Shown piece by piece: positions 8,075 to 45,718 of a stretch of DNA of 64,000 nucleotides. Both the position numbers and the translations under genes were made by a program. The first letter of the stretch is position 1. Each line of letters starts with the position of its first letter. This stretch comes from Myxococcota bacterium. Lineage in GTDB: Bacteria; Myxococcota_A; UBA9160; SZUA-336. The notes below the pieces were generated by a model that saw only the letters and a program-made list of their open reading frames with translations, did no database searches and was not told where the DNA came from. Location of the stretch: NCBI GenBank assembly GCA_965247115.1, contig CBDFGR010000003.1, positions 160,001 to 224,000 on the forward strand, in the 5' to 3' direction.

Positions 8075-8127
8075 GTATCGACGCCCTCGGTCCGGCGGCT
8101 AAGGGCAGCCTCGCGATCTGCCGAAAC
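8075..8127. promoter_or_regulatory. Back-to-back sigma28/WhiG-like promoter candidates
   Basis: Minus strand TTAG-N16-GTCGATAC (8075-8102); plus strand TAAG-N16-GCCGAAAC (8100-8127). Confidence 0.5.
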
Positions 8128-8143
8128 AGCAGCCGAGGTGGCT

Positions 8144-8821
8144 GTGCTCCGCTCGACTTCCGTCTACGACCGAACGCGAGTGCTCAAGGCGGCGGCTCGC
8201 GCGCGCTCCAAGCGTCGTCGCAAGAAGGCGATCGCGCTCTACCGCTGGGTGCTCGCCGTCGAGCCGGGCAACGCGGAGATTCACGGCAAGCTCGCCCCCC
8301 TGCTCGCTCGCACCGGCCAGACCTTCGATGCCTGGGTGAGCTACCGTCGCGCCGCGCGAGGCCTGGCACGAGAGGGGTTGACGGAGAAGGCGCTGGGGAT
8401 CTACCGGGAGGCGGGGAGCTACCTGCCTCGGCAGCTCGAGACCTGGCTTGCCATCTTCGAGCTGGAGCGGCAGCGAGGCCGCGACGCCGACGCGAGAGAG
8501 GCCCTCCTCGAGGGTCGCCGGCGCTTCCGGGGCCGACGCTTTCGCCCGCAGGCGATCTACCTGCTCAGGCGCATGCGCACCGTCGATCCCTGGGAGCTCG
8601 AGACCGTCCTCGATCTCTCGCTGCTGCTCGCCAAGACCGGCCAGCGCCGCGAGGCGGAGATGCTGCTTCGGGAGATGGGGTCCCGCTGCAGGGGACGCCC
8701 GCTGCGGCGCGTGCGCACGGCCCAGTGGAGGATGAGTCCATCCATCGCCAACACCTGGCTGTGGCTGCACGCCATGTTCCAGACGGGCGGAAGGTCGGCG
8801 CCCGCCCGAGCCTCCCGCTAG
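8144..8821 (+). CDS. Basic TPR-repeat protein
   Basis: KAIALYRWVLAVEPGNAEIHGKLA TPR-like helices; GAGGTG before GTG 8144; start uncertain. Confidence 0.7.
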   Translation: MLRSTSVYDRTRVLKAAARARSKRRRKKAIALYRWVLAVEPGNAEIHGKLAPLLARTGQTFDAWVSYRRAARGLAREGLTEKALGIYREAGSYLPRQLETWLAIFELERQRGRDADAREALLEGRRRFRGRRFRPQAIYLLRRMRTVDPWELETVLDLSLLLAKTGQRREAEMLLREMGSRCRGRPLRRVRTAQWRMSPSIANTWLWLHAMFQTGGRSAPARASR

Positions 8822-8824
8822 CGA

Positions 8825-9142
8825 CTAGGGCTGCACGAGCGGGGTCGCGGATCTCTTCCACCCGCTGACCCGACAGCCGAGACAGCGTATGAAGGTCGCC
8901 TCTGCGGGACCCCTCACGAGCACGTCGAAGAACGAGGGATCCCGGCTGAAATAGGTGAACGGCAGCGTTACCGCATAGATAGCAGCCCCGACGAGAGTAA
9001 CGCCCAAGGTCGCGGGTCGGGTGAAAAGCGCGTCCCCGGCGTACACGACGTACTGCCTGATCGGCTGTCCGTACAGCTGGTCCGCCTGTGCCGGTGCGGC
9101 CAGGCAGGTCGCGAGTAGCGTGGCCACGAGAAGTCTGCCCAT
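8825..9142 (-). CDS. Small exported/membrane conserved hypothetical protein
   Basis: Signal peptide (APAQA), D..TRP..LG..LVG..VTLPF..P..TF.RCLG pattern; GGAGG RBS. Confidence 0.7.
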   Translation of the reverse strand: MGRLLVATLLATCLAAPAQADQLYGQPIRQYVVYAGDALFTRPATLGVTLVGAAIYAVTLPFTYFSRDPSFFDVLVRGPAEATFIRCLGCRVSGWKRSATPLVQP

Positions 9143-9291
9143 CACAGTTCCTCCTTCCGCATTTTTCTCGAGCGTGAGTAGTGAGGGTATTATCCCTCGT
9201 TAGCTTGGACGCCGGCAAGAAGCATGATGGTGGGTGGGCACTGCTGCCGATACGATACGCAGCGCGGCACCACGCGCGGAGGGGCAGCGAG

Positions 9292-11199: not shown

Positions 11200-11202
11200 G
11201 AG

Positions 11203-11886: not shown

Positions 11887-11952
11887 GTGCTTCGCTCCAG
11901 TGGCGGGCCGTAGAGCGGGCCAATGTACCATGGGCCTTCTGGGGCGAAGCCG

Positions 11953-12801
11953 ATGGCTACCCTATACTGGTATGGCCCCCGTCAGGAGGAGCAGATCAGT
12001 ACTCCCGAGGACAGAGGACCTGCGGACGAGAGCTCGCCGAGCGCCGGGAGCGAGCGACCAAGCTTCGCGCAGCGCAGAGAACGACCCCGAGAAGGCGGAG
12101 CGTGGATGCTGATCGTGGCCCTGGCGGCCGCCTTCCCGATCTACTGGGGCTACCAGCGCTTCATCGCCACCGACGACGCCCAGCAAAGCTCCAGCGCAGA
12201 GGAGGAGCGAGCTGACTTTCTCGCCGTTGCCGACGACTACGCTGCAAGCCTGTTCGCGGAGGGACGGTGGGAGGAAGCAGCCAAGGCGTACCGCGTGGTG
12301 CGAGAGAGATACCTCGAGGCCAACGACGGGGTCCACGACGAGTCCGCCGCAGCCCTCCTCTTCAACCAAGCCGCGAGCGAGCTGAACCGGGGCAGGAGCG
12401 ACGTCGCGCAGACGCTTCTGCTGGAGCTTCAAGTAGAGGCGCCGACGTATCGCCCGGAGGAGATCGCGGAGCTCGTCCGGGAGACGGCCGACCGAGCCCC
12501 GACCGATCGGTACGAGTACCTGACGGCACAGGCATCGTCGGCCTTTGACGAGGGCAACTGGACGCTAGCGGTACAGCGCTACCGGGAGCTCCTGGTCCAC
12601 CTGCGTTCGATGGGGTACTCCGAGACCGACGACCTGTTCTCGCAGGCCATGTTCGACCAGGCCATGGCGTACTCGAATGAAGGTCAGTACGTGGAGGCCG
12701 AACGGATCCTGAACGACCTCAAGGCAGGCAACCCGGACTACGACCCTGCTCGCATCGACGAGCAGCACCAGCGCGTCATCGCGCTTCTCCGGGACCAGTA
12801 A
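11953..12801 (+). CDS. Membrane-anchored TPR protein
   Basis: One TM segment followed by two similar TPR-like modules; start uncertain. Confidence 0.7.
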   Translation: MATLYWYGPRQEEQISTPEDRGPADESSPSAGSERPSFAQRRERPREGGAWMLIVALAAAFPIYWGYQRFIATDDAQQSSSAEEERADFLAVADDYAASLFAEGRWEEAAKAYRVVRERYLEANDGVHDESAAALLFNQAASELNRGRSDVAQTLLLELQVEAPTYRPEEIAELVRETADRAPTDRYEYLTAQASSAFDEGNWTLAVQRYRELLVHLRSMGYSETDDLFSQAMFDQAMAYSNEGQYVEAERILNDLKAGNPDYDPARIDEQHQRVIALLRDQ

Positions 12802-13351
12802 ACCTTCGGCAGCGGAACACGAAGTCGGAGTGGCCGATCCGGAAGCGGTCGCCGTCCTGGAGGGGCTGCTCGGCTCCCTGCAAGAGACCGCGGAAGTAGG
12901 TGCCGTTCTTGCTCTCGAGGTCGCGGAGAAAGTACCGCTCGCCGGTCCGGATGATCGCAGCGTGGCGCCGGCTCACGGAGTCATCCTCGAGCGTCACCTC
13001 GACTCCAGGGTCGCGACCTACCACCGTCCTCGGGCCGGCTACGGTGAATTCGCGCCCGATCTCTCCGCCGCCGTAGACCATGAGAACCGCCTCCCGAGGC
13101 ACGGTTTCCAGCGCGGGGCCTGGGCGTTCTAGAGGAGCGGGGGCCTCAGGGGGACCGACGAAGAAGGTCGACTTCTCCAGCGCCACTCCGGAGTCGAACG
13201 CGGCCTTGCGCTGCTCCTCGCCGACGATCGCGCGCTCGGCGCTCTCCAGCTTCCTGTGGTTGCCGCGATCGCGCGCCTCGTCAGCAACGCCGTACAGGAA
13301 ATCCAGCGTCGCATCCGCAGCCGCGCGCCTCGCATCCACACTTTTGCCCAC
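12776..13351 (-). CDS. FHA domain protein
   Basis: VVGR..DDSVSRRHA..LRDLESKNGT..DGDRFRIG; start approximate. Confidence 0.88.
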   Translation of the reverse strand: MGKSVDARRAAADATLDFLYGVADEARDRGNHRKLESAERAIVGEEQRKAAFDSGVALEKSTFFVGPPEAPAPLERPGPALETVPREAVLMVYGGGEIGREFTVAGPRTVVGRDPGVEVTLEDDSVSRRHAAIIRTGERYFLRDLESKNGTYFRGLLQGAEQPLQDGDRFRIGHSDFVFRCRRFTGPGEAR

Positions 13352-13385: not shown

Positions 13386-13413
13386 GAATCGGCGGGGCCG
13401 CGCGTGAACTTTA
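13386..13413 (-). promoter_or_regulatory. Sigma28/WhiG-like promoter of the FHA gene
   Basis: TAAA-N16-GCCGATTC. Confidence 0.65.
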
Positions 13414-13486: not shown

Positions 13487-13514
13487 TAAAGTCCGCGCTC
13501 GCCGTGACAGATAA
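13487..13514 (+). promoter_or_regulatory. Sigma28/WhiG-like promoter of the PilZ gene
   Basis: TAAA-N16-ACAGATAA. Confidence 0.55.
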
Positions 13515-13520
13515 GGGAGC

Positions 13521-13832
13521 ATGAACCCGGAGCGCAGCGCGAGTACCCGCCACGAGATCCCGGCACCCGTCGCGTACTGGGGTCCCGATCTCAGGGGCGA
13601 TGGCACGATCGCGAACATCTCCGCCTCCGGTGCCCTCATCGAGCGAGCGTCCTCTCCCGTCAGCAAAGGCACGCGCCTGGGCATCCTCGTGCGCTACTTT
13701 CCGGACGGCGCCGAGCACTGCTCGCTCGAACTCTCGTCGGAAGTCGTACGCACGACGGACGGCGGCTTCGCGGTGCAGTTTCAGAACCTCGGACCCGAAG
13801 CCCTCTTCCTTCTCTGCGGACTACTCGGCTAG
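13521..13832 (+). CDS. Stand-alone PilZ domain protein
   Basis: ERSASTRH (RxxxxR-like), NISASGA (D/NxSxxG), EVVR..FAVQF. Confidence 0.8.
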   Translation: MNPERSASTRHEIPAPVAYWGPDLRGDGTIANISASGALIERASSPVSKGTRLGILVRYFPDGAEHCSLELSSEVVRTTDGGFAVQFQNLGPEALFLLCGLLG

Positions 13833-18465: not shown

Positions 18466-20913
18466 TCAGGACAGCTCCTGGAGTCGGTCCGCTACCTCGC
18501 GAAACCCCGGCTTCTTGGCTGCGACCTGTTTGAACGCATCGAGCGCCCCGACCCGATCACCGGCCGCAAGGAGCGCCTCTCCGAGGTCGTACCGGAGAGA
18601 GATCGCCGAGTCGGCGCCCTCGCCGACTATCGCCAGCGCCTCTCCCAGATGCGTGGCCGCGACGGCGGCCTGGCCTAGCTCGAGCTTGCACGCGGCCATC
18701 AAAGAGAGCGTCTCGGCCGGACGCGCGCCCGCACGCTGCACCGTCTCGAGCTCGCGGACCGCGTCCTCTAGCAACCCCATCTCCTTGTAGGCGATGGCGA
18801 GGTCGTAGTGCGTCTCCGACTCCTCTTCGCCGACCTGATCCTGAATACCCTTCTTGAAGGCTGCGAAGACCTTGTCGAAGGCTGTACCAGACTTCTCAGC
18901 CGTCGCGAGGACAACATCCTCGTCCTCGAGCTCCGCCGCGAGATCGAAGTCGTCCTCGGGCTCCGGCTCGACGGCGGCAACAGCGGCCTCGGCGTCCGCC
19001 AGCAGATCCTCGAGGGTCTCCTCCGTGGCGTCGGGGAAGGTACGCTCGCTGAAGCTAGGCGGCCGCGGCAGCGGCGCAGCTTTCGGCCGCTCCAGCTTGA
19101 CCTCTGGGATCGGCGGCGCCTCGACCGGGCTCTCAGCTTCGTCGACGTGCGTATCCCCCAGCAGATCTGTGACCCCGCAGGTCACCGTCTCGCCTCGCTC
19201 GCTCAGAATCTCGCCCAGCCGCAGCATCGCCTTTGGGTGGTTCGGTGAACGAGCGAGCACCTCCCGGAGGATGCGCTCCGCTTCGGGGATCATCCCCTGC
19301 TCGAGGAAGAACTCGGCCTCCTCCAGATCCTCACTGACGCGCGCGGACTCGGCGCTCCAGTCCTCAGCGCCAAAGACGTGGGAGTCGGTCGCCCGTCCGG
19401 CAGGAGCGGATGACACCTCGAGCTCGCCGGGCTCCTCGTCCAGCTCGATGTCGATCTCGATCTCTTCGTCGTCCGGCTCCGCGCTGGGGGGCGGAGCTCT
19501 CTCGATTCCGCGCGGAGGATCGATCGAAGCGAAGGCATCGTCGCGGTCCTCCTCGTCGTCCAGAACCAGTTCGATGTCCGGCAGCGTCTCGAGGGACTCT
19601 TCTTCGAGAACGTCCTCCAGCGGAGGCTCGGCAAGCGGCTCCAGGCGAGGTTGGACAGCGGGCCCTGCGAGCGGCTCCGCTTCTACCTCGAGAGCGACTT
19701 CCTCCGGCGCCTCGATCCGGGCAAGCAGCTCCTTCGCCTCGGTGCTCGAAGGCTCGAGTCGCAGGACCTGCTGCACGAGTCGCTCGGCCTCTTCCGCATC
19801 GCCGAACTCCAACGATACCTTGGCCTCCGCCAGCAGATCGCTCGCATTGAAGAGCGGCACCGACGAACGAATGGACTGACCGAGGGCTGCATCGAGCGGA
19901 GCCCCGTCGCCGATGACCTGCCCACCCTGGTCGAGGAGCTCGTCGGCGGCCAACGTGAGCGGGTCTTCCGACTTGGGCGGCGCGGGCGGCTCCTCCTCCT
20001 CGGTCAGGAGAATGCTCGGCGAGGTCTCCCCTTCGGTATCCAGGAGCGGTTCCGCCGACACGTGCCGTTGTAAAATGTCGCGGGCCGTATCTGGCTCGCC
20101 GCGGTTCTTGTAGATCTCCGCGATCCGCCGGTAGACACCGCGCACACCCTCTGAGTCGCCGTCGGCCTCGTAGGCCATGACGAGGACCTCGTGGAACTCG
20201 ATGTCATCGCCGAAGCTAGGCAGCGCTTGCTTCAGCAGCTCGATGGCCTTCTTGGGCTGGCCGGTGCTGATCTTGACCTCCGCCAGCGTCGCGAGCGCTT
20301 CCTTGTGGGTCGGGAACGCATCGAGCGTGGCTTCTGCCACGCGCGTCGCCATCTCTGCGCTGGTATGCCTGGCGACCTCTTTCAGCAGAAGGCCGAACTC
20401 CTGCTGGGCGTCGTCTTCGAGGCCCTGCCGCAACATCAGGCTGGCCAGGTTCAGCCGATTGGGAATATTCCCCGGATCGAGCAGGGCTACCTTCTTGAGC
20501 TGATCGAAGGCTTCGCGCTTGAGGTCGTTGGCCTGACAGAACTTGACTGCGATCTGGAACTCGCGCAGTGCGTCGGAGGCCAGGCCCATGCGCTGGAAGT
20601 GATCGCCGAGCTGTATTCGCGCCTCCAGACACTCGCTGTCGACCCGAAGGATCTGCTTGAAGATCGCGACCGCCTTCGCGTCGAAGCCCCCCTTCGAAAA
20701 CTGCTGCGCTACCTGTGAGTACGCTTCGATCGCTTTCTGTTTGTCACCTTTCTTCAGGTGAAGGTCGCCGATCTTCAAGCGGACGTTCGTATCCCGGGGG
20801 TCCGCAGCTAATAGCTTTGCGTACTCCTTGAGCGCTTTGTCGTACGCTCCCTTCTGAGCGTACTTTTGCGCGGTCTCGAGCGTCTTCCGCTTCTTCTGTC
20901 CCGACGCAGCCAG
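18466..20913 (-). CDS. sgmX: SgmX-like TPR protein (T4P polarity/activation)
   Basis: N-terminal KGAYDKALKEY TPRs, acidic linker, ETHYDLAIAYKEMGL; position after aroQ/mglC; probable CTG start. Confidence 0.8.
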   Translation of the reverse strand: MAASGQKKRKTLETAQKYAQKGAYDKALKEYAKLLAADPRDTNVRLKIGDLHLKKGDKQKAIEAYSQVAQQFSKGGFDAKAVAIFKQILRVDSECLEARIQLGDHFQRMGLASDALREFQIAVKFCQANDLKREAFDQLKKVALLDPGNIPNRLNLASLMLRQGLEDDAQQEFGLLLKEVARHTSAEMATRVAEATLDAFPTHKEALATLAEVKISTGQPKKAIELLKQALPSFGDDIEFHEVLVMAYEADGDSEGVRGVYRRIAEIYKNRGEPDTARDILQRHVSAEPLLDTEGETSPSILLTEEEEPPAPPKSEDPLTLAADELLDQGGQVIGDGAPLDAALGQSIRSSVPLFNASDLLAEAKVSLEFGDAEEAERLVQQVLRLEPSSTEAKELLARIEAPEEVALEVEAEPLAGPAVQPRLEPLAEPPLEDVLEEESLETLPDIELVLDDEEDRDDAFASIDPPRGIERAPPPSAEPDDEEIEIDIELDEEPGELEVSSAPAGRATDSHVFGAEDWSAESARVSEDLEEAEFFLEQGMIPEAERILREVLARSPNHPKAMLRLGEILSERGETVTCGVTDLLGDTHVDEAESPVEAPPIPEVKLERPKAAPLPRPPSFSERTFPDATEETLEDLLADAEAAVAAVEPEPEDDFDLAAELEDEDVVLATAEKSGTAFDKVFAAFKKGIQDQVGEEESETHYDLAIAYKEMGLLEDAVRELETVQRAGARPAETLSLMAACKLELGQAAVAATHLGEALAIVGEGADSAISLRYDLGEALLAAGDRVGALDAFKQVAAKKPGFREVADRLQELS

Positions 20914-27367: not shown

Positions 27368-27368
27368 G

Positions 27369-27983: not shown

Positions 27984-28001
27984 AACGGTCCCTCGCCCCG
28001 C

Positions 28002-28595: not shown

Positions 28596-28597
28596 GG

Positions 28598-29666: not shown

Positions 29667-29921
29667 TCAGATCGAACCCAACGGCTCTCCGCCGCCGCCG
29701 TGTGGTACCAGACCGTCGGGCGACTGGTCGCCGAAGACGCGATCCTTGTCGGAGACCTTGAGCCCGAGCGCGTGGAGGATCTTGCGCTTCGTGTCTAGGC
29801 GACAGGCCTTCCCGGCCTCGACACGATCGATGGTCAGGGTCGAGAGCCCGGACTTGCGAGCCAGCTCGGCCTTGCTCATCATGAGCGCTTCACGTATCCG
29901 TCTGACGTTGTTCTCAGACAC
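29667..29921 (-). CDS. Small XRE-family HTH regulator
   Basis: MSKAELARKSGLSTLTIDRVEAG. Confidence 0.88.
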   Translation of the reverse strand: MSENNVRRIREALMMSKAELARKSGLSTLTIDRVEAGKACRLDTKRKILHALGLKVSDKDRVFGDQSPDGLVPHGGGGEPLGSI

Positions 29922-29965: not shown

Positions 29966-29993
29966 TGATCGGAGATTGATGACAGTGACTTGA
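29966..29993 (-). promoter_or_regulatory. Sigma28/WhiG-like promoter of HTH-pilMNOPQ
   Basis: TCAA-N16-TCCGATCA. Confidence 0.55.
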
Positions 29994-34735: not shown

Positions 34736-34791
34736 GTGGGCTTCCCGGCGGCGCGGCGCGGCCCTTCATGGTTCAGACGATAGCTACGACG

Positions 34792-35568
34792 CTACCGGAA
34801 GTCTCGCCGCTGAAACAGCAGCATGGACGCGAGCATGAGCCCGAGGGAGTACAGACACGCATAAAGAGCGCCCATCACGATGCGGGCTGTCTCGATCGCG
34901 TTGCCGGCGGAGGCGTCCGCCTTCAAGTCGAGGCGATCGAGATTCGGAAGCGACCAGTACAGTGCCTCCGTGACCGCCTTGACCGCACCCAGCTCGGACT
35001 TTCCACCGAACGCGCGCAGGTCGGACAGGAGATGACCCATGATCCAGAGCGCGAGCGTGAACATCCCTGCCAGGTAGGGTGTCGTAAAGCTCGTGAAGAA
35101 CATTGCCACCGCCGTGACGAGCGCGAGCTCCGCGAAGATGAACGCGATCCCCCACAGCAGCGGCGCGTCGACTTGGCCGCCCTTGAACTGGAGCAGGCCC
35201 ACGAAGCACGCCGTCATGAGCCCCACCTCCAAGGCGAGCAGGGTCAGCAGACCGAAGTACTTCCCCGCCATGAACTCCCAGCGGCGCACGGGCTTCGCCA
35301 GAATGGTGTAGACGGTGCGCTGGGAGATCTCTCTATAGACGAGGTTGATGCCGACGAAGATCGCCACCAGAACGCCGAAGAACGCGATCGTGGAGAGCCC
35401 GACGTCCCGGTAGATGCGGTTCTCGTCACCAATGTGGAGCCCCGCGAGCAAGATGGAGCTCGCGATCATGAGCCCGGCGAACATCAGCAGGTTGTAGAGC
35501 AGCTTGTCGCGGATCGCCTCGCGATAGGTATTTCTGGCAAGCGCCCAGACCCGGCCCAGCGAGCTCAT
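34792..35568 (-). CDS. pilI: ABC permease PilI
   Basis: NTYREAIRDK, TILAKPVRRWEFMAGK, FQRRDF; synteny. Confidence 0.9.
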   Translation of the reverse strand: MSSLGRVWALARNTYREAIRDKLLYNLLMFAGLMIASSILLAGLHIGDENRIYRDVGLSTIAFFGVLVAIFVGINLVYREISQRTVYTILAKPVRRWEFMAGKYFGLLTLLALEVGLMTACFVGLLQFKGGQVDAPLLWGIAFIFAELALVTAVAMFFTSFTTPYLAGMFTLALWIMGHLLSDLRAFGGKSELGAVKAVTEALYWSLPNLDRLDLKADASAGNAIETARIVMGALYACLYSLGLMLASMLLFQRRDFR

Positions 35569-36497
35569 GCGGCGCCCTCCCCTTCGATACCCTTGACCAG
35601 CAGGTCCTCGAGGCTGCGTCGCTTCGGCACGAGGCTCCGGATCCTGCCCGAGGCCTGGCGAACGCTATCGAGGGCCTTCTCGGCTTCGGCCTCGTCCGCA
35701 AACTCGAACAAGAACCGCGGTCCCTGTACGACGGCGCGTTGGGCGCTCGTGGCCAGCTCCTCGTACAGCTCCTCGCTGATGCCCTCTACCACCAGCTCCG
35801 CACCGGACAACTCCTGGCCGAGGAGCTCCTCGAGATAGCCTTGCTGCACGATCGTACCGCCCAGCAGGATCGCCACTTGATCGCAGATCACCTCCGCGTC
35901 CTGCAGGATGTGCGAGGTGAAAAAGATGGTCTTGCCCTCGTCGCGAAGGGCCAGAATGAGATCGCGTACGTCCCTACGCCCCAGCGGATCGAGGCCGGAC
36001 ATCGGCTCGTCGAGGATCACGATCCCCGGATCACCCACCAGCGCCTGGGCGAGACCGGCGCGCTGGCGCATGCCCTTCGAGTAGCGGCGAATCTGACGGT
36101 CGGCGGCGTCGTGAAGACCGACACGGTCGAGCAGCTTGGGGATACGCTCGCGCCGTACTTCGCGCGGGATGCTCAGCAGCGAAGCGTGGAAGTCGAGGAA
36201 CTCACGCGCTGTCAGGTACTCGTGGAAGAAGGTGCCCTCGGGCATGAAGCCGAGACTCGTGCGACTCTGCGGCTTCGAGACGGGGATCTCGCGGATCCAG
36301 GCCTCCCCGGCGCTGGGTAAGATCAGGCCTGTCAGCATCTTGATGGTCGTCGTCTTCCCCGCGCCGTTGGGTCCGATGAAGCCGAAGATCTCGCCCTTGG
36401 CAATGTCCAGATCCAGCTCGCGAACCGCGACCACGGGACGCATCCAGAAGCCGGTTCGAAACACCTTCTTCAGACCCCTTGCTCGAATCTCGCTCAC
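35565..36497 (-). CDS. pilH: ABC ATPase PilH
   Basis: [27 protein letters not shown]; synteny. Confidence 0.92.
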
Positions 36498-36510
36498 CTC
36501 TGGGTCCTCA

Positions 36511-37371
36511 CTATTCCCTCACCCGAAGGAGCTCGTGCTGCATCGAGCTCACCGCGCTGCCGGCCTCGATGCGATACGGGTTGCCCTCGGGGTCGTACGG
36601 TTCGCGGGCAAGGAAGCCCGCGCTGACCAGCGCCCCGACATCTTCCGGAACGACCCCTTGCTCGCCTTGATAGGCGGCGATCGCCGCATCGATGCGTGCG
36701 AGATCGCGTGTGATCCAGAGATCGAGGAGCCGGGCCTCGAGGTCCTTCCGGATCTCCGGATGCTCCTCCTGCTCGAGCCGCGTCTTGAGGAAGGCCATCG
36801 CTGTTTCCGGATCGCCTCCGTGCGCGTAGAGGCGCGTGGCGAGCAGCGGCAGGTAGGGAGGACCACCGCGCTTCGCGGCCTCCTCGATCCAGCGCGCCCC
36901 CTCCACGTAGTCCGCCTTCTCCATGAAGTAGTTGAAGCCCAGCAGGAAGTAGATCCGCCAGTAGTCGCTATGCCGGGAGCCCTTCTTTAGCAGTCGGATC
37001 GCAGCATCCGGGTCCATGCGCAGCCCGCTCAGGACCGAGTTCATGAGCACGTAGACGCCGGAGAAGTATGGATCGATGTCGGTAACGAGATGGGCCAGTC
37101 GCTCCGCATCCGGATAGTTCACCAGAGCCGAGCGCTCATCGCCCACGTAGTAGACCGTGCGTAGCCAGAACAAGTCGGCGACGAGCCGCTCGAAGCCCAG
37201 GGAGAGCGTACGTACAGCCTTACCATTCGGCAGAGGTCCAACGTCCCCAGCCGCTGCGCGCTCTCCGGCGTAGCCCTCCAGCCTGACGTTGGTTTTGTGC
37301 ACACCCCAGGCCGTGAGCGCAATCGCCACGCAGAGGGCCACCTCCAGACGGTATCGCCTGCTCCTAGCCAC
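36511..37371 (-). CDS. pilG: PilG-like accessory protein (Myxococcus-type)
   Basis: LGFERLVADLFWLR, TDIDPYF, DPEGNPY; located between pilA and pilH. Confidence 0.82.
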   Translation of the reverse strand: MARSRRYRLEVALCVAIALTAWGVHKTNVRLEGYAGERAAAGDVGPLPNGKAVRTLSLGFERLVADLFWLRTVYYVGDERSALVNYPDAERLAHLVTDIDPYFSGVYVLMNSVLSGLRMDPDAAIRLLKKGSRHSDYWRIYFLLGFNYFMEKADYVEGARWIEEAAKRGGPPYLPLLATRLYAHGGDPETAMAFLKTRLEQEEHPEIRKDLEARLLDLWITRDLARIDAAIAAYQGEQGVVPEDVGALVSAGFLAREPYDPEGNPYRIEAGSAVSSMQHELLRVRE

Positions 37372-37378: not shown

Positions 37379-37406
37379 CGATCGACAGGGGTCCGGCACT
37401 TCTTGA
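37379..37406 (-). promoter_or_regulatory. Sigma28/WhiG-like promoter of pilGHI
   Basis: TCAA-N16-GTCGATCG. Confidence 0.5.
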
Positions 37407-37612: not shown

Positions 37613-38221
37613 CTAGAAGACCTCCAGGCCGAAGTTCGCGTTGTCACAAGGTCCAACCTGATGCTGCATGGCGACGGCCGCACCCGTGGTCTGGGTGAGC
37701 TGACGGTTCAGCACGGTCGTGCAGCCCAGCGTCGCGCCGATCGTGAAGTTGTTCTTCAGATCGGGCTTCTGCAGGCCCCAGATGTTCAGCGTTCCGTCAC
37801 CGTCGATGTCCGAGTTGCCGACGGCGAAGAACTGGTTGCTCGGGGGCGGGGCGTTCGTGGCAACGATGTAGTTAAAGTACACGTCGCCCTCCGGCTCCCA
37901 ACCGATGAAACAGTAGCCCGGATCGCCGGCCTGCGGCGGCGAGTTCGGACAGACGGTCCAGGCCGCCTTCTGCGAGTTGGGCGCTCCAGCCAGGGTCTGG
38001 CCCCAGTTCTGGAAAGTTCCGAGCTCTGCAAAGTAGGCTTCCTGCGCCGTGCGGATCGCGGCCAGGTTGAGCTTGCCCTCGCCCGCCTTCGATCGCAGCT
38101 GGAACTTCAGGAAGTTCGGAATCGCGATCGCCGCCAGAATCCCGATGATCGCCACGACGATCATCAGCTCGATCAGGGTAAACCCCTGCTTCTTCTTGAG
38201 CTTGTTTACCAACGAAATCAT
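37613..38221 (-). CDS. pilA: Type IVa major pilin
   Basis: KKKQG^FTLIELMIVVAIIGILAAIAIPNF; GAGGAG RBS. Confidence 0.98.
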   Translation of the reverse strand: MISLVNKLKKKQGFTLIELMIVVAIIGILAAIAIPNFLKFQLRSKAGEGKLNLAAIRTAQEAYFAELGTFQNWGQTLAGAPNSQKAAWTVCPNSPPQAGDPGYCFIGWEPEGDVYFNYIVATNAPPPSNQFFAVGNSDIDGDGTLNIWGLQKPDLKNNFTIGATLGCTTVLNRQLTQTTGAAVAMQHQVGPCDNANFGLEVF

Positions 38222-38316: not shown

Positions 38317-38332
38317 AGCAAGGCGCGTGCCG
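38317..38332 (-). promoter_or_regulatory. Sigma54 -24/-12 promoter of pilA
   Basis: CGGCACGCGCCTTGCT (GG-N10-GC). Confidence 0.8.
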
Positions 38333-38441: not shown

Positions 38442-38479
38442 GTGACGCTTCGCGGAACGCGAGTGACGCATCCCGTCAC
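38442..38479. promoter_or_regulatory. Candidate PilR enhancer (UAS)
   Basis: GTGACGC at 38442 and 38463; palindrome GTGACG-N5-CGTCAC at 38463-38479; 110-150 bp upstream of the sigma54 site. Confidence 0.5.
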
Positions 38480-38500
38480 CCGGACGACCGACCCAGGCGC

Positions 38501-39868
38501 TCAGTCGGAGTTCAGACCGAGCTTCTCGAGCCGGTAGCGGAGCGAACGAAAGCTGACGCCGAGCAGCTGCGCGGCCTTCTTCTTGACCCCGCCCGAGCGC
38601 TTGAGCGCCTCCTTGATGAGCCCGCTCTCGAATGCGCAGATCATCCGGTCGAGGTCGACGCCTTCCTCGGGTATCTGCTCAGACGGCTCGGGACGCGATC
38701 CCTCGAGCACGGTGGTCGGCAGACACTCGAGGTCGATACGGTCGGCACTGGAGAGGGTCAGGGCCCGCTCCACGATGTTCTCGAGCTCACGCACGTTGCC
38801 CGGGTAGTGGTACGCCTCCAGCGCGGCCAGTGCCTCCGGAGCGATCCCCGTCATGCCTCTTCCCAGCTCGAGGGCGTACTTGCGGGTGAAGTGGTGGATC
38901 AGCTCGGGGATGTCCTCCGCCCGGTCCCGGAGCGGCGGGAGGCGGATCTCGATCACGTTCAGGCGATAAAAAAGGTCCTCGCGGAAGCGACCGTCGCGCA
39001 CGTCCTCTTCGAGCATGCGGTTCGTGGCGCAGATGATTCGCACGTCGACCCGGATGTCCTGAACCCCTCCGACTGGTTTGAACGTCCGATTCTGGATCGC
39101 GCGCAGCACCTTGACCTGGAGCTGGAGCTGCATCTCGCCAATCTCGTCGAGAAAGAGGGTCCCTCCGTCCGCCGCTTCGAACAGCCCCTCCTTGTTCGCC
39201 GTGGCGCCAGTGAACGAGCCCTTGATGTGTCCGAAGAGCTCGCTCTCCAGCAAGTTCTCGGGAATGGCGCCGCAGTTCACGGCGACAAAGGCCTGCTCCC
39301 GGCGTCCCGAAAGCGAGTGGACGGCGCGCGCGATCAAGTCCTTGCCCGTGCCGCTCTCGCCCGTGATGAGCAGATTCGTCTTGCTCGTCGCCACCTGGCG
39401 TACGAGCGCAGAGACCTCCACCATCCCGCGACTGCGACCGAGGACTTCTGGTAAGGAGGTGTGCTCGCTGAGCTGACGACGCAAGCGCACGTTTTCGCTG
39501 GAGAGATCGCACTTCTCCAGCGCCTTCTCGACGACGAGCCGGATCTCGTCCACCGCACAGGGCTTGGTCAGGTAGTCGTAGGCCCCGTGCTTCATCGCCT
39601 CCACGGCCGACTCGGTCGTGCCGTACGCGGTGATCAACACGAGCAGGGTGTGTGGCGAGGCCTCCTTGACGTGGTCGAGCAGCTCCAGGCCCGTCATGCC
39701 GGGCATCTGGATGTCGCTCAGAACGAGCTCGAAGTCATCGGATTCGAGGGCGAGAATCGCCTCTCCGGCAGATCCACACACGACGACGTCGTGTCCCTCG
39801 CGCCGCAGCAGGATTTCCAGGAACTCCTGCATACTCGTCTCGTCATCAACTACCAGGATCCGTGCCAC
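38501..39868 (-). CDS. pilR: Sigma54-dependent response regulator PilR
   Basis: Receiver domain, GESGTGK, GSFTGA, SFRSLRYRLEKLG. Confidence 0.95.
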   Translation of the reverse strand: MARILVVDDETSMQEFLEILLRREGHDVVVCGSAGEAILALESDDFELVLSDIQMPGMTGLELLDHVKEASPHTLLVLITAYGTTESAVEAMKHGAYDYLTKPCAVDEIRLVVEKALEKCDLSSENVRLRRQLSEHTSLPEVLGRSRGMVEVSALVRQVATSKTNLLITGESGTGKDLIARAVHSLSGRREQAFVAVNCGAIPENLLESELFGHIKGSFTGATANKEGLFEAADGGTLFLDEIGEMQLQLQVKVLRAIQNRTFKPVGGVQDIRVDVRIICATNRMLEEDVRDGRFREDLFYRLNVIEIRLPPLRDRAEDIPELIHHFTRKYALELGRGMTGIAPEALAALEAYHYPGNVRELENIVERALTLSSADRIDLECLPTTVLEGSRPEPSEQIPEEGVDLDRMICAFESGLIKEALKRSGGVKKKAAQLLGVSFRSLRYRLEKLGLNSD

Positions 39869-39892: not shown

Positions 39893-39920
39893 GAATCGGC
39901 AAGCGCGGAATGTCGCTTAA
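39893..39920 (-). promoter_or_regulatory. Sigma28/WhiG-like internal promoter of pilR
   Basis: TTAA-N16-GCCGATTC in the pilS-pilR gap. Confidence 0.6.
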
Positions 39921-39922: not shown

Positions 39923-41536
39923 TCATCCGCTCGGCAGGAGGACGCGCACCCGAGTGCCCTCCCCCTCCGTACTGCTCACCGAAAGCTCGCCTCCGTGCGC
40001 CTCCACGACGCGGTGTACGGTTGCGAGCCCGAGCCCCGTCCCCTTGGGCCGCGTCGTGAAGAAGGGCTCGAAGACCCGTTCGAGGATGTCTGAGGGAATT
40101 CCGGAGCCCTGATCGATCACCTCGACTAGCACGCTCTCGCTGTCCTCGGACGGAATGCCGTGCTGAACTTCACCGTGCACGAGCACGCGGCCGTCCCGAG
40201 GCTCGGACTGGACCGCGTTCAACACGAGGTTCCAGAACACCTGGCGGAGCTGATCGGGATCTCCCTTCGTGCACACCTCGTCGGGAATCTCGAGGTCGAG
40301 CCGGGCCCCGCTGTGCTCGTCCGCCTCCAGTAGCTGGCGAATCTCGTCCATGAGGTCGCGCAGCGCCACGCGCTCGACCCGACCTTCTCCGGGCCGCGCG
40401 TAGCGCAGAAAGTCGCCCACCAGACGGCTCAGGCGCTCGGTCTCCCGCTGCACGATCTGCGTGAGTCGCTCGTCGCTCTCCTCGCCGGGAGGTAGATCTG
40501 CGAGCAGCAGCTCGATTGCTCCCGAGAGCGAGGCCAGCGGGTTGCGAATCTCGTGAGCCATTCCCGCTGCGAGCTGACCGACGGCGCTCAACCGCTCGCT
40601 GCGCCGCAGCCGCTCCTCCATCTCCACGATCTGCGTGAGGTCCTGAAATACGAGGATCGCGCCAACCTCGTAACCGTCAGAATCCCGCAGGGCCGAGATC
40701 GACATCCCCAGGTGGGCGTCCTGCTCATCGCGACCTCGGAAGCGCACCTGCAGGCGCGTTCCCTCGCGCTCCTGAGGCAGCGTCGGAAACAGCTCCGCGA
40801 GCGTTGGGAAGAGGTCCCCGAGCGGCTTCCCGATGATCTCGGAGGCAGCGTAGCCGGTAATGCGCTCGGCCTCTGCGTTGAAGGACATGATCTTGTCGTC
40901 GCGGTTGACGGTCAGGAGGCCGCTGGAGACGTTGTCGACGATGCGACGATAGAGCTCGGCCAGCTCGTGCAGCTCCTGGCGGCCGGTCTGAACCTGGACC
41001 GCGAGCCGCCGTGACAGCAATGCCGTGAACAGAAACGCCACCGAGTGCAGTCCGACAACGGTCAGCGCGGCAGGCGTGCTGATGACAACCTGCTGGTCGA
41101 ACGGGGGCAGCCAGGCCCCGGCCTCGCCGACCACGATCAGCCCGAAGCCCAGCATCGCGCTGAGGCAGGCGAACAGCGCACCGCGCTCTCCGGCCGTGAC
41201 CGCCGCGTTTACGATCCAGATGATGTACAGGAACTCGAACAGAGATGCCGAGCCGCCCGTGCAGTAGACGAGCCCCGTGATCAGACAGCCGTCGCCGACC
41301 AGCTCCACGGTGTGGCGGCGGGCGAAGCCACCGTGCGCGGCGAGCGCGGCATAGGCCAGGCTCAGCAGGAAACCTGCCAGCACGAGGGCGTAGAGGGCCG
41401 TCAGCTCGCGATCGGAGTACGAGGCCCCGCCGCGAACCTCGATCAGCACGGCAAGGACGAAGATGGCAGCAATCGCAACGAGCCGCGTTGCGAGAGCCTT
41501 GACCGATTCCGCCGAGCGTCGGTGTTGCGCGTCCAC
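39923..41536 (-). CDS. pilS: Sensor histidine kinase PilS
   Basis: Multi-TM N-terminus, [23 protein letters not shown]. Confidence 0.93.
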
Positions 41537-41578: not shown

Positions 41579-42787
41579 CTAGTTGACCGCTTCTGCGATC
41601 TTGAAGATCGGCAAGTACATCGCGACGAGCAGGCCGCCAATCGTGCCGCCCAGACCGACCATCATCACCGGCTCGAGCAGCGCGGTCAGCGCGTCGACGG
41701 CCGCGTCGACCTCCTCGTCGTAGAAGTCGGCGATCTTGGCCAGCATCGAGTCCATCGCGCCCGTCTGCTCTCCGACCGCGACCATCTGCGTCACCATCCC
41801 GGGAAATACCTTCGACTCCATCAGCGGCTCGGCGATCGTCTTCCCCTCCGCGATGGAGGCCTTCGTCCGCAGGATCTCGTTCTCGACCACCATGTTCCCG
41901 GCGGTGCGAGCGACAATCTCGAGCGCGTCCAGGATCGGCACCCCGGAAGAGAGCATGGTGCTCAGCGTACGGCTGAACCGCGCTACGGCAACCTTCTTGA
42001 GAAGGCCGCCGAACACCGGCGTCTTCAGAAAGACGGTGTCGAAGAAGAGCCGGCCTTTTGGTTTGGAGGTGATGAATTTGTACGCGAACACCGCGAGCAC
42101 TATCCCTCCAGCGAAGTGGAGGTAGTAGGCCTGCATGAAGTGCGAGATCGCGATCACCTTCGCGGTCGGACCCGGGAGCGCACCGCCGAAGTCGGCAAAC
42201 ATCTTCTCGAAGACGGGAATGACCTTGACAAGCATTACTACGACGACCATCGACGCGATCACCGTCACCGAGATGGGATATACCATCGCGCCCTTTACCT
42301 TCCGTTTCAGGGCGGCGGCTTTCTCCATATATTTCGCAAGGCGATTCAGAATCGTGTCGAGGATACCCCCAACCTCGCCCGCGGCTACGAGGTTCACGTA
42401 GAGACTGTCGAAGATCTTCGGGTGCTTCCCAAGCGCCTCGGAGAACGTCGAGCCACCCTCGACGTCGTGCTTGATCTCCAGAATTTTTTTCTTGAAGGTC
42501 GCGTTCTCCTGCTGTGTGCCGAGAATTTCGAGACACTGCACGAGCGGCAAGCCCGCGTCGATCATCGTGGCGAACTGCCGCGTGAACACAACGAGGTCCT
42601 TGAGAACTACCGGCGGTGCCAGGAACGGGAGGAGCTCGGTCAGATCCTTCGACTTGGCCTTGATCGTGCCGGGCATGATCGACTGGCTACGGAGCTGCGC
42701 CTCCGCGGCGGCGACACTGTCTGCTGCTATGACGCCCTTCTTGACGAGACCTTCCCTGGTCTTGCCTTCGAAGTTGTAGGTCGGCAT
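41579..42787 (-). CDS. pilC: T4P platform protein PilC
   Basis: FTRQFATMIDAGLPL, AGEVGGILD, AMYLPIF. Confidence 0.97.
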   Translation of the reverse strand: MPTYNFEGKTREGLVKKGVIAADSVAAAEAQLRSQSIMPGTIKAKSKDLTELLPFLAPPVVLKDLVVFTRQFATMIDAGLPLVQCLEILGTQQENATFKKKILEIKHDVEGGSTFSEALGKHPKIFDSLYVNLVAAGEVGGILDTILNRLAKYMEKAAALKRKVKGAMVYPISVTVIASMVVVVMLVKVIPVFEKMFADFGGALPGPTAKVIAISHFMQAYYLHFAGGIVLAVFAYKFITSKPKGRLFFDTVFLKTPVFGGLLKKVAVARFSRTLSTMLSSGVPILDALEIVARTAGNMVVENEILRTKASIAEGKTIAEPLMESKVFPGMVTQMVAVGEQTGAMDSMLAKIADFYDEEVDAAVDALTALLEPVMMVGLGGTIGGLLVAMYLPIFKIAEAVN

Positions 42788-42812
42788 TGCAGACCCCTCG
42801 TCTCAGCCCTGG

Positions 42813-43916
42813 CTAACCGGCGGTCTGGCGCTTGCCGGCGGCGCCAGGCCCCTGGGGATTCCGGATGATGCTCTCCAGCTCGACCGAGTCGGAGCTCCTC
42901 CCCATGGCATCGTCGAATGTGATCAGCCGCTTCAGATACAGCTCCGCGAGAGACTGGTTCATCGTCTGCATCCCGAACTTGTCCTGCCCGATCTGCATCT
43001 GCGAGTAGACCTGGTGGACCTTGTCCTCGCGAATCAGGTTGCGAATGGCAGGGTTTGGGACCATCACCTCCACGGCGAGCACACGACCAGGAGAGTTCGC
43101 TCGAGCGAGCAGCGTCTGAGAAACCACGCCTTCAAGCACGAAGGAGAGCTGCATGCGCACCTGCGCCTGCTGGTGCGACGGGAACACGTCGATCACGCGG
43201 TTGATCGTCTGCACCGCGGAGTTCGTGTGCAGGGTCGCAAAGCAGAGATGGCCCGTCTCGGAGACCGTGAGAGCGGCCTGAATCGTCTCCAAGTCCCGCA
43301 TCTCACCGATCAGAACTACGTCCGGATCCTGACGCAGGATGTAGCGGAGCGCGGCCTCGAAGGTCTTCGTGTCCGCCCCCACCTCACGCTGATTCACCAC
43401 GCACCCCTTGTGCGGATGCAGGTACTCGATGGGGTCTTCGATCGTGATGATGTGCCGGTGGGTGCTGACGTTGATCTGATCGATGATCGAGGCCAGCGTG
43501 GTCGACTTCCCGCTTCCCGTCGGACCCGTGAGCAGAACCAGGCCACTCGGCTTGTCCGCGAACCTCTCGATGACATCGGGCACACCAAGATCCCCGATGG
43601 GCTTGATCTCGTAGGGGATCATTCGGAACACGCCGGCGATCGCGCCCCGCTGGACGAAGATGTTCGCCCGGAAGCGCGCCAGCCCCTTGACGCCGAAGGA
43701 GAGATCCAGCTCGTTCTGCGCCTCGAAGCGGTGCTTCTGAGCGTCGGTAAGGATCGAGTAGCACGTCTGCTTCGTTTCCTGGGGAGTGAGGGGAGGCATG
43801 TTCAAGGGAACGAGCGTGCCGTCCACACGCAGCTGAGGAGCCGTGCCAGTCGTCACGTGCAGGTCCGATGCTCCCTTCTCGAGCATCGCTTTCAGCAGCT
43901 GGTGTAGGTTCGCCAT
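42813..43916 (-). CDS. pilT: Retraction ATPase PilT
   Basis: GPTGSGKSTT, TIEDPIE, LRQDPD, AIRNLIRE motif. Confidence 0.98.
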   Translation of the reverse strand: MANLHQLLKAMLEKGASDLHVTTGTAPQLRVDGTLVPLNMPPLTPQETKQTCYSILTDAQKHRFEAQNELDLSFGVKGLARFRANIFVQRGAIAGVFRMIPYEIKPIGDLGVPDVIERFADKPSGLVLLTGPTGSGKSTTLASIIDQINVSTHRHIITIEDPIEYLHPHKGCVVNQREVGADTKTFEAALRYILRQDPDVVLIGEMRDLETIQAALTVSETGHLCFATLHTNSAVQTINRVIDVFPSHQQAQVRMQLSFVLEGVVSQTLLARANSPGRVLAVEVMVPNPAIRNLIREDKVHQVYSQMQIGQDKFGMQTMNQSLAELYLKRLITFDDAMGRSSDSVELESIIRNPQGPGAAGKRQTAG

Positions 43917-43923
43917 CTCTTCC

Positions 43924-45624
43924 TCAGTTGTCGGCCATCGATACTCGGAGAGCCTCGCCAAGGGTGGTGGTCCCCTCGAGTACCTTGGTCAGCGCACTCC
44001 GGCGCAGAGAGCTCATTCCGCCACGAAGCGCCTCCCGCTTGATCTCTGCAGCACTTGCGCCGTTCAGCACGAACTCCCTCACCGTATCGGTGAGAGTCAT
44101 GACCTCGTAGACAGCGATTCGGCCTCGAAAGCCGGTCTCGGAGCAGTTTCCGCAGCCGGTTCCCATGCGCGGCTGACAGCTCGCGGCCTGCTCGCTCGTC
44201 ATGCCCGCCTTCTCCAGCTCGGCGGCGGTCACGTCATCGTCGTCTTCCACGCAGTCCTCGCAGATCTTGCGGAGAAGACGCTGCGCGACCACGCAGTTGA
44301 CCGAACTCGCGACCAGGAAGGGCTCGATGCCCATGTTGAGCAGGCGATTGATCGTACTCGGGGCATCGTTGGTGTGCAGGGTCGAGAGAACCATGTGGCC
44401 GGTGAGAGCGGCCTTGATCCCGATCTCCGCAGTCTCGAAGTCGCGGATCTCACCGACCATGATGATGTCCGGGTCCTGACGTAGGAACGCGCGTAGCGCA
44501 GACGCGAAGTTCAGCCCGATGTCCTCGCGCATCTGCACCTGGTTGATGCCCACGAGATTGAACTCGACCGGATCCTCCGCAGTCGAGATGTTCTCTGACG
44601 TGGTGTTCAGCTCGGAGAGCGCCGAGTACAAGGTGGTCGTCTTTCCTGACCCGGTCGGGCCGGTCACGAGCACCATGCCGAAGGGCTGATGAATGGAGTG
44701 CTTGAAGTCGCCGAGCTGCTTCTCCTCGAAGCCTAGCTTGGTCATGTCGAGCTGCAGGTTGCTCTTGTCGAGTAGGCGAAGAACGATCTTCTCTCCAAAG
44801 AGCGTCGGCAGAACGGAGACGCGATAGTCCATCTCCTGGTTCTTGCCCATCTTCAACTTGATGCGGCCATCCTGGGGCAGACGGCGTTCCGCGATATCGA
44901 GGTCCGCCATGATCTTGACCCGCGATGTCAGAGGGTTCTTGAGCTTTCGCGGCGGTTTCATCACCTCGTACAGCAAACCGTCAATCCGGTACCGAACTCG
45001 GAAGTCCTTCTCGTACGGCTCGATGTGAATATCAGAGGCGACCTTCTTGACCGCGTCGGTGAGGATGAGGTTGACGAGCTTGACGACCGGAGCGTCTTCC
45101 GTCTGCTGCGCGAGCTCGTCGATGTCGACAGACTCTTCGCTAGAGACGACCTCGAGATCCTCGTCGTCGAAGCCCATCATCACTTCGTCGATGGATGCAG
45201 ACGAGTCGTAGTACTTCTCGATGGCGCGCCGGATCGACTCCTCAGCCGCGACAACGACCTCGACGTTGTAGCCGGTGAGGAACTTCACGTCGTCCATCGC
45301 AAAGATGTTCGACGGGTCCGAGGTCGCGATGATCAGCGTGGACCCGGCGCGGTTGACCGGGAGGATCGTGTGCTTGTGGGCGACGTCCTCGGGTACGAGG
45401 GCGACCACCTCCGGATCGACCTCGAAGTCGTCCAGGGTGATCATCGGCACGCCGTATTGGTTCGAAACCGCTTCGGCCAGCTCGGACTCCTCGATGAAGC
45501 CGAGCTTTGTCATCTGGTAGCCGACCCGAGTACCGGTCGAGTCTGCCTCTTGCTTGGCGCGCTGGAGCTGCTCTTCCGAGAGCAGGCTCTTTTGAACCAG
45601 GAGCTCGCCGATCCGGTCGTTCAA
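43924..45624 (-). CDS. pilB: Extension ATPase PilB
   Basis: TTG start after GGAGGGG; RIGELL (MshEN-like), ASDIHIEP, GPTGSGKTT, tetracysteine motif. Confidence 0.97.
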   Translation of the reverse strand: MNDRIGELLVQKSLLSEEQLQRAKQEADSTGTRVGYQMTKLGFIEESELAEAVSNQYGVPMITLDDFEVDPEVVALVPEDVAHKHTILPVNRAGSTLIIATSDPSNIFAMDDVKFLTGYNVEVVVAAEESIRRAIEKYYDSSASIDEVMMGFDDEDLEVVSSEESVDIDELAQQTEDAPVVKLVNLILTDAVKKVASDIHIEPYEKDFRVRYRIDGLLYEVMKPPRKLKNPLTSRVKIMADLDIAERRLPQDGRIKLKMGKNQEMDYRVSVLPTLFGEKIVLRLLDKSNLQLDMTKLGFEEKQLGDFKHSIHQPFGMVLVTGPTGSGKTTTLYSALSELNTTSENISTAEDPVEFNLVGINQVQMREDIGLNFASALRAFLRQDPDIIMVGEIRDFETAEIGIKAALTGHMVLSTLHTNDAPSTINRLLNMGIEPFLVASSVNCVVAQRLLRKICEDCVEDDDDVTAAELEKAGMTSEQAASCQPRMGTGCGNCSETGFRGRIAVYEVMTLTDTVREFVLNGASAAEIKREALRGGMSSLRRSALTKVLEGTTTLGEALRVSMADN

Positions 45625-45690
45625 CGCACCCCTCCGGATCTTGCCGCACCCGCGCGCGAAGATCGCAGAATGAACCGCATTCGCGGTGTT

Positions 45691-45718
45691 GTATCGGTGG
45701 CGCTCTGAGCGAGCTTTA
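45691..45718 (-). promoter_or_regulatory. Sigma28/WhiG-like promoter of pilBTC
   Basis: TAAA-N16-ACCGATAC. Confidence 0.65.

Follow-up and report, generated by a model that had tools for sequence, protein, structure and literature searches.

In the canonical polar flagellar hierarchy sigma54 is followed by sigma28, with FlgM. Transcription of the pilin gene pilA follows a logic of PilR and sigma54. The present analysis concerns a stretch of 64000 nucleotides (the window; G000:C3:160001-224000, from GenBank assembly GCA_965247115.1 of a Myxococcota bacterium), which carries a type IVa pilus cluster, and a bipartite motif of sigma28 type that recurs upstream of the transcription units of this cluster and of other genes nearby. 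In Rubrobacter radiotolerans, promoters of the TAAA/GCCGATAA type belong to WhiG, a sigma factor of the sigma28 family; of 12 promoters confirmed by mapping of transcription start sites (TSSs), three lie inside the type IV pilus cluster, and WhiG promoters are also found before genes related to cyclic di-GMP (c-di-GMP) (PMC8325347). Regulons linking WhiG and pili have been predicted in other Actinomycetota (PMC12871210), and the same source describes the roles of FliA and FlgM in the flagellar hierarchy and supplied the RsiG signature of the RsiG-(c-di-GMP)-WhiG switch used below. FliA/WhiG-like sigma factors of Actinoplanes missouriensis direct both flagellar and type IV pilus genes (cited in PMC8325347 and PMC12871210).

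In Bdellovibrio bacteriovorus, a TSS-mapped FliA motif, TTAAG-N16-CCGATA, goes with a large attack-phase regulon (PMC3627812), and a FliA-dependent promoter of a Tad/Flp pilus has been demonstrated in E. coli (PMC5430801). For pili, a single row, TadC, was found among the attack-phase promoters tabulated in PMC3627812, and according to the same paper the type IVa genes pilB (Bd1509; 5.9 versus 41.7 reads per kilobase per million, RPKM) and the pilM-type Bd0863 (14.6 versus 148.6 RPKM) are growth-phase biased. The Myxococcus-type cluster itself contains pilR1S1, pilR2S2 and pilGHI, with ribF beside pilB (PMC6060248); in the main text of that paper the word sigma does not occur. A literature search, with most subscription journals and bioRxiv supplements outside its coverage, returned no paper in which type IVa pili of Myxococcota are placed under sigma28, and a look-up for a division of flagellin promoters between sigma54 and FliA was likewise without result.

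The motif in the window, TAAA/TCAA-N16-(G/A/T)CCGAT, is very probably a conserved sigma28-type promoter read by the FliA proteins of this organism, which would drive the type IVa pilus machine, polarity functions, PilZ/FHA signalling and, within its own family (f1), late flagellar genes. An earlier note on this DNA had listed ten such sites, and all ten are present at the positions given, each in the orientation of the gene that follows and with 16 nt between its boxes (Table 1). As promoters, seven of them reach p<=0.001, the sites before the sgmX-like, TPR and TraF-like genes being the weak ones; an eleventh site, before pilR2, was missing from the list. The absence of the motif before housekeeping genes, also asserted there, was borne out by scores of -4.9 to 8.4 for nadK, coaBC (the highest), rsmD, coaD and ribF, against a threshold of 12. 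The pilA upstream region scored -0.8, so that pilA, which has a sigma54 box and no sigma28 site, is not a direct sigma28 target, a correction to the wiring of the pilus machine as first proposed.

With a matrix built from the ten sites, a scan outside the window gave 81 sense matches (score>=12) in non-coding upstream DNA at spacer 16, and 9-25 at each of 12 other spacers. On the antisense strand spacer 16 does not stand out (11 matches; range 2-11), nor does it in coding DNA (203 matches; range 107-261), so that the enrichment over other DNA, for which the earlier note had suggested a test, is confined to upstream regions and to the sense strand. A second matrix started from the sigma28 consensus and learned solely from 4641 upstream regions that lie outside the window; it converged to T(C/A)AAG-N15-(G/A)CCGAT and gave p<=0.001 for eight of the 59 window genes (pilB, pilR, pilG, the Ig gene, HTH-pilM, PilZ, FHA and pilR2; Ig, immunoglobulin-like; HTH, helix-turn-helix). 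Across the upstream regions of the genome, scores of at least 14 occurred 107 times at spacer 16, 17 times at spacer 15 and 5-16 times at other spacers. The second matrix found 99 upstream regions at this score, compared with 7.2 in shuffled sequence and 38 antisense, but it had been trained on those very regions, and we relied on the independent tests, namely the ten-site scan outside the window, the window itself and the relatives. These data point to a -35 TAAA box and a -10 GCCGATAA-like box in about 100 promoters of the genome, with a spacer peak at 16 bp and a minor one at 15 bp; sites scoring at least 12 precede 146 of 5190 genes. The spacer is thus not invariant, as had been thought, since it measures 15 bp at the real sites before flgM and a second flagellin-like gene, and before sgmX of several other families (G026, G027, G035, G036 and G039).

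The sites are conserved beyond the genome in which they were noticed. We sampled the class, which may be UBA9160 of GTDB, with 41 genomes of seven families, 30 of them of good quality; since these genomes are related, the counts are not independent trials. PilB and FliA were each present in 30/30 good-quality genomes, and FlgI, FlhA and flagellin each in 14/30. At all 30 loci, that of the own genome among them, there is a pilB site scoring at least 12, whose boxes hardly vary from locus to locus while the spacer does; under a leave-one-out matrix it was recovered at 28/30, and at 0/30 with spacers of 12-14, 18 or 19. In the pil-cluster stretches of 25 relatives, sites scoring at least 11 precede pilB (23/25), HTH-pilM (20/21), pilG (9/10), pilR2 (13/18), pilR (9/23), the Ig gene (9/15) and sgmX (5/9, at 16 bp). 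The corresponding counts are 0/25 for pilT, 0/25 for pilC, 0/18 for pilS, 0/10 for pilD, 2/21 for pilM and 1/11 for pilH, all internal to operons, and 2/14 for pilA. The pil sites are therefore conserved among orthologues across the class and its seven families, the check that the earlier note had proposed. Relatives without flagellar markers keep the sites before pilB (13/13) and HTH-pilM (11/11). A strict pattern searched through whole genomes was in excess in G019 (13 versus 1) and G027 (8 versus 1), and gave 1 versus 0 and 0 versus 0 in two FliA-negative genomes.

Outside the class, 59 of 83 PilB loci were taken in, and a pilB site scoring at least 12 occurred in 4/37 FliA-positive and 0/22 FliA-negative genomes, at scattered positions. 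A phylum-wide regulon was rejected for those 59 loci, which lack a consistent pilB site; the pilB sigma28 site is specific to the class. Other members of the phylum also have FliA and no FlhA match (G041, G078 and family f23, with FliA in 6/7 and FlhA in 0/7), and these are without a clear pilB site.

The sigma28-family factor that had been supposed to lie elsewhere in the genome was found twice. Two proteins, the only such ones in the genome, exceed the curated TIGR02479 cut-off of 189.6 bits (278.9 and 278.4 bits): FliA1 (C3:235073-235828), located 11 kb after the end of the window, and FliA2 (C3:523166-523924). As the two are near-identical in regions 2.4 and 4.2, both likely read the same sites. 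In a PDB comparison all seven matches of FliA at E<=1e-30 are sigma factors, five of them labelled FliA or WhiG and the top two just 'RNA polymerase sigma factor'. In a midpoint-rooted FliA tree with long outgroup branches, the FliAs of the class form one clade (100/98), with the FliA2 clade nested among own-family rows. In G019 fliA1 is missing from its usual place between the activator gene and the FlgM-like gene (G019:C53:63991-83980), and this genome retains FliA2, the FlgM-like gene and the pil sites. In genus g10, the FliA rows that we looked at belong to the FliA2 type.

A sigma54 activator gene precedes fliA1, and a 67-residue FlgM-like gene with its own 15-bp sigma28 site follows it. 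The FlgM-like protein scored 28.8 bits with PF04316 (cut-off 25) and fell under the TIGR03824 cut-off; its two best PDB matches are FlgM, both weak (E 0.04 and 0.15). Such genes occur in 20/24 own-family genomes, including some without flagellar markers, and in 0/16 genomes of other families. They are kept in own-family genomes that have no FlhA match, for instance in 5/5 of genus g10, which argues against release by flagellar export there. The RsiG signature E(X)3S(X)2R(X)3Q(X)3D had no match among 5191 called proteins, and RsiG-type control was rejected on this ground.

The search for an anti-sigma factor and flagellar genes, which the earlier note had left to be done, thus turned up a candidate for the former and a set of the latter, and 'pili instead of flagella' was rejected for this genome. 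It carries flgB to fliQ, flhB-flhA-flhF, flgF to flgL, fliC-D-S and motA, most of them named from N-terminal sequence and gene order. Sigma28 sites precede flgJ-N-K-L, motA, flgM and each of the two flagellin genes; for the main flagellin the first matrix gave a score of 14.4 and the second one of 8.9. That the motif is of sigma28 type, in agreement with the published flagellar consensus TAAA/GCCGATAA (PMC8325347) and with the TSS-mapped motif of Bdellovibrio (PMC3627812), stands with these targets. The proposal of a pilus programme stands as far as the conserved pil sites go and has to be widened for this genome, in which the regulon spans both motility systems. A divergent stand-alone flagellin-like gene (G000:C2:1355130-1355930) lies away from the flagellar clusters and has a strong sigma28 site; its counterparts in relatives share 40-47% identity with the main flagellin, and their spacer is mostly 15 bp. 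A transposase with the same N-terminus as one beside fliA1 also borders the two flagellar pieces of the genome, where it precedes fliR (C3:1929107) and follows fliQ (C2:1603754); it may have split one flagellar cluster.

Flagellin promoters differ between families. In families f5 and f6 a sigma54 box is present, and a sigma28 site absent, at each of the 11 flagellin loci (seven genomes); in the own family the sigma54 box is found at 0/17 loci, and a sigma28 site scores at least 12 at 12/17, the remainder scoring 8-12. The flgJ-N-K-L site is present in 6/6 own-family clusters and was not seen before flgN/flgK in seven f5/f6 clusters. This split runs parallel to the presence of the FlgM-like gene. 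Since the f5/f6 flagellins have sigma54 boxes only, FliA there likely serves the pili, with sigma54 running the filament genes. As the sites are also kept in relatives without a flagellar marker, the pilus link is, at the level of promoter sequence, independent of flagellar genes, and FliA is likely a switch for pili and surface motility where no flagellar genes were found.

Above this there is likely a sigma54 tier. fliA lies on the pilB contig, 25-33 kb off, in 17/41 genomes with conserved gene order, and in none of the 14 flagellar-cluster stretches fetched. A sigma54 box of the GG-N10-GC form lies within 200 nt before fliA at 79/79 loci with enough flank (controls 1 and 3) and before pilA at 14/15 loci. 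In the own genome such boxes precede flgB, flgF, both fliA genes and pilA, and the strict pattern matches only 20 genes. The earlier note had made the sigma28 factor a master regulator; FliA is likely a middle tier, its own gene having a sigma54 box and lying behind a sigma54 activator gene. We propose that the activator beside fliA would turn on fliA from this sigma54 promoter, that FliA would then transcribe pilBTCS, pilR, pilGHID, pilR2, HTH-pilMNOPQ, sgmX and about 100 other units from the sites observed, and that PilR with sigma54 would in turn transcribe pilA from its box. In the own family the short FlgM-like protein, with its own sigma28 site, might damp FliA.

Upstream of the pilA sigma54 box (window 38445-38480) there are inverted-repeat-like GTGAC...CGTCAC words, a candidate PilR binding region, and similar words occur in the pilA upstream regions of relatives. 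Two further genes resemble that of the major pilin, C3:30966-31574 in the own genome, with the length and N_methyl score of pilA, and C2:1677753-1678367, with its own sigma54 box.

Several observations weigh against the reading of the motif as a FliA promoter of a motility regulon. Three of the ten sites (sgmX, TPR and TraF-like) are weak in the own genome, with p values of 0.02-0.03, and those of pilR and the Ig gene are confined to the own family. The strict whole-genome pattern showed no excess in G035 (13 versus 13). The regulon contains genes without an obvious link to motility, which we take to be Hsp70, Lon-like and Rho-like, in part from N-terminal sequence. Flagella were judged absent from three markers scored in draft genomes, and related genomes are not independent. 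Finally, in the own strain (G000:C3:232126-234691) the activator gene before fliA1 is frameshifted ahead of its HTH, and an insertion sequence with a transposase gene lies between it and fliA1, so that the top tier may be impaired in this strain. The frameshift is in accord with low-depth contigs from runs X1 and X2, both of one sample; in runs X5 and X6 the activator frame is intact and there is no insertion.

An alternative that shares the promoter identity, and differs on the role of the uncharacterized genes, is that FliA reads the sites as part of a broad life-phase programme such as the attack phase of Bdellovibrio, with pili as one of its outputs, so that no pilus role need be assumed for the FHA, PilZ, TPR and TraF-like genes. 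We give this somewhat less than an even chance. The number of sites speaks for it, as do DivIVA, bactofilin, Hsp70, lytic transglycosylase and HDOD-GGDEF genes among the top matches, and the Bdellovibrio FliA motif is found at 92/140 attack-phase promoters (PMC3627812). The 20 targets that we picked include, besides DivIVA, bactofilin, Hsp70 and the HDOD-GGDEF protein, a zinc-ribbon protein, a sigma54 activator, two further PilT/PilU ATPases and an MglB-like roadblock protein, and three of them have no Pfam match. The last-named ATPases and the MglB-like gene, together with 4/18 pilin genes that carry sites, tell in favour of motility, as do the class-wide core sites, which are those of pilB, HTH-pilM and sgmX, and the embedding of the Ig gene in the pil cluster.

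Both the FHA gene and the PilZ gene of the window come from families over-represented in the regulon (4/6 FHA genes and 12/26 PilZ genes), and therefore their co-regulation is supported, but a pilus function is not. Neither gene, nor the TraF-like gene, was found in the pil-cluster stretches of the 25 relatives. A separate search of 40 relatives returned the FHA gene once (E<=1e-18; in G036, likewise with a site) and the TraF-like gene six times (E<=1e-25; strong sites in G031 and G035, none in G005 and G039), which, unlike the core pil genes, fits a broad programme. In G002, a genome of the same genus, the TraF-like site first proposed has its boxes 17 nt apart, and the boxes of an alternative 15-bp-spacer site are kept. 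The TPR site is kept in G002, the genome from which its conservation was judged, since the matches to the TPR gene in the pil-cluster stretches of relatives proved to be sgmX and were left out. Of the five genes that the earlier note had placed in the programme, FHA, PilZ and Ig thus have good claims to regulon membership as judged from their promoters, TPR and TraF-like weaker ones, and a role in the pilus is not implied for any of them.

That some other DNA-binding protein, such as an extracytoplasmic function (ECF) sigma factor, a group 2 sigma factor or the conserved HTH protein encoded before pilM, reads the motif, with the likeness to sigma28 being incidental, seems quite improbable to us. 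Other genes of the sigma70 family are numerous in this genome, with a total of 18 region-4 matches that pass the Pfam cut-off, and the pilM operon begins with a conserved HTH gene, but the motif equals the published sigma28 consensus and stands before flagellin, flgM and motA, the two FliAs are alone in passing TIGR02479, and FliA-negative genomes outside the class show no pilB site. Chance matches in GC-rich DNA, or non-functional relics, hardly merit belief, for although coding DNA abounds in TCAAG and GCCGAT words (about 200 matches there per spacer) and each of the three weak sites could be chance, the excess is specific to spacer, strand and upstream position and the boxes are conserved across seven families with free spacers, a conservation by which chance is refuted for pilB, HTH-pilM, pilG and pilR2.

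Returning to the FliA-read promoter, a class-wide interpretation may be ventured, to which we again give somewhat less than an even chance. Sigma28 might foremost serve type IVa pili and polarity throughout the class, in a sigma54-sigma28-sigma54 cascade that copies flagellar logic; the flagellum of families f5/f6 might have passed wholly to sigma54, and the FlgM-like anti-sigma factor of the own family might survive without an export gate, released by another cue, possibly a checkpoint of pilus assembly.

Table 1. Predicted promoter elements and genes of the window. Positions count from its first nucleotide; p values were obtained with the matrix trained outside the window, against shuffled upstream regions.
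Feature	Position	Strand	Support
Sigma28-type promoter, pilB-pilT-pilC-pilS	45691..45718	-	p=0.0001
Sigma28-type promoter, pilR	39893..39920	-	p=0.0006
Sigma28-type promoter, pilG-H-I-D-S2	37379..37406	-	p=0.0006
Sigma28-type promoter, pilR2, within pilS2 3' end	32455..32482	-	p=0.0004
Sigma28-type promoter, Ig-domain gene, within last codons of pilR2	31047..31074	-	p=0.0008
Sigma28-type promoter, HTH-pilMNOPQ	29966..29993	-	p=0.0001
Sigma28-type promoter, sgmX, weak in own genome	20998..21025	-	p=0.03
Sigma28-type promoter, PilZ gene	13487..13514	+	p=0.001
Sigma28-type promoter, FHA gene	13386..13413	-	top score in window
Weak sigma28-type site, TPR gene	8100..8127	+	p=0.03
TraF-like site of the earlier note, doubtful	8075..8102	-	p=0.02
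Alternative 15-bp-spacer site, 64 nt before TraF-like ATG	7961..7987	-	score 15.5; boxes kept in G002
Sigma54 -24/-12 box of pilA	38318..38331	-	
pilB, extension ATPase	43924..45624	-	T2SSE and MshEN (Pfam)
pilT, retraction ATPase	42813..43916	-	T2SSE (Pfam); named by position
pilC, platform protein	41579..42787	-	T2SSF
pilS, sensor kinase	39923..41536	-	6TM_PilS, HisKA
pilR, sigma54 activator	38501..39868	-	Sigma54_activat and Response_reg
pilA, major pilin	37613..38221	-	N_methyl; typeIV_PilA_Myxo under cut-off
pilG-like, pilH, pilI, pilD, pilS2	32415..37329	-	ABC_tran, ABC2 membrane, Peptidase_A24, HAMP/HisKA
pilR2, sigma54 activator	31040..32443	-	domain search
Ig-domain exported protein	30065..31003	-	He_PIG, Big_9
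Small Cro/C1-type HTH gene, head of pilM operon	29667..29921	-	HTH_26; GTG start inferred
pilM, pilN, pilO, pilP, pilQ	24063..29656	-	PilM_2, PilN, PilO, PilP, Secretin
sgmX-like TPR protein	18466..20913	-	NF052243 SgmX 175 bits, far under 1800 cut-off
Stand-alone PilZ protein	13521..13832	+	domain search
FHA-domain protein	12776..13339	-	domain search
TPR protein	8180..8821	+	domain search
TraF_2 / PorV-like protein	6397..7896	-	domain search

The genome (5.17 Mb, three contigs, 98% complete) was called with our own dicodon model, which gave 5191 genes, and these were named with Pfam and NCBIfam; its closest FliA relatives all come from metagenome assemblies. The window holds pilB-T-C-S-R-A-G-H-I-D-S2-R2, the Ig gene, the HTH gene, pilM-N-O-P-Q, aroK/B/Q and the sgmX-like gene, and ribF adjoins pilB. 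The name pilG was given by position only, without a family match, and the genes that we presume to be RomR-like and MglA-like carry these labels from position or N-terminal likeness only. For the sgmX-like gene a CTG start was inferred from relatives, which have TTG or GTG there, and open reading frame finders lose 45 codons. In 21 relatives the pilMNOPQ operon likewise starts with the small HTH gene, at 54-97% identity, and a similar small HTH gene at C3:1749439 likewise has a sigma28 site, a possible feedback regulator. An RpoD-like group 2 sigma gene (G000:C2:1050666-1052114) has a candidate sigma28 site 205 nt upstream, possibly a sigma cascade. At window positions 9181-11199 lies an unusual fusion of vWA, phosphopantetheine-attachment (acyl carrier protein-like) and DUF900 alpha/beta hydrolase domains.

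From these data the wiring of surface motility in a large class of uncultured Myxococcota can be drawn at the level of motifs, and they provide about 100 candidate genes for roles in pili or polarity, among them many single-domain PilZ and FHA proteins, the Ig protein and the conserved HTH protein. In some families there is likely a full swap of duties, with FliA at the pili and sigma54 at flagellin, and the question is raised of how the FlgM-like anti-sigma factor is released where no flagellar export gate was found.

In gene content and in the neighbourhood of ribF and pilB, the locus resembles the Myxococcus-type cluster. As in the canonical flagellar hierarchy, sigma54 boxes precede flgB, flgF and fliA and sigma28 sites precede flagellin, motA, flgM and flgJ-N-K-L, but fliA and flgM lie close to the pil cluster and not in the flagellar ones, the majority of sigma28 sites belong to non-flagellar genes, and FlgM-like genes persist in relatives in which no flagellar export gene was found. 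With WhiG of Rubrobacter and other Actinomycetota it shares sigma28-family promoters within a type IV pilus cluster and before c-di-GMP-related genes. It differs from Rubrobacter in having a Gram-negative, Myxococcus-type machine with polarity genes, no RsiG motif, a FlgM-like gene in one family, sigma54 tiers above fliA and at pilA, and about 100 sites rather than 12-20. Actinoplanes missouriensis likewise uses one sigma family for flagellum and pili, as does the own family here; that organism, however, belongs to another phylum and forms zoospores, and in the present class the pilus link is kept without a flagellar marker or with a flagellin that has sigma54 only. Motif and spacing are the same as those of Bdellovibrio FliA, as is the large non-flagellar regulon, whereas pilB and pilM are the best-conserved targets here and the type IVa genes of Bdellovibrio are growth-phase biased. 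Sigma28 control of type IV pili is thus already published for Rubrobacter, for Actinoplanes and for the Tad pilus of Bdellovibrio, but because the growth-phase bias of pilB and Bd0863 is opposite to FliA control, the type IVa link described here differs.

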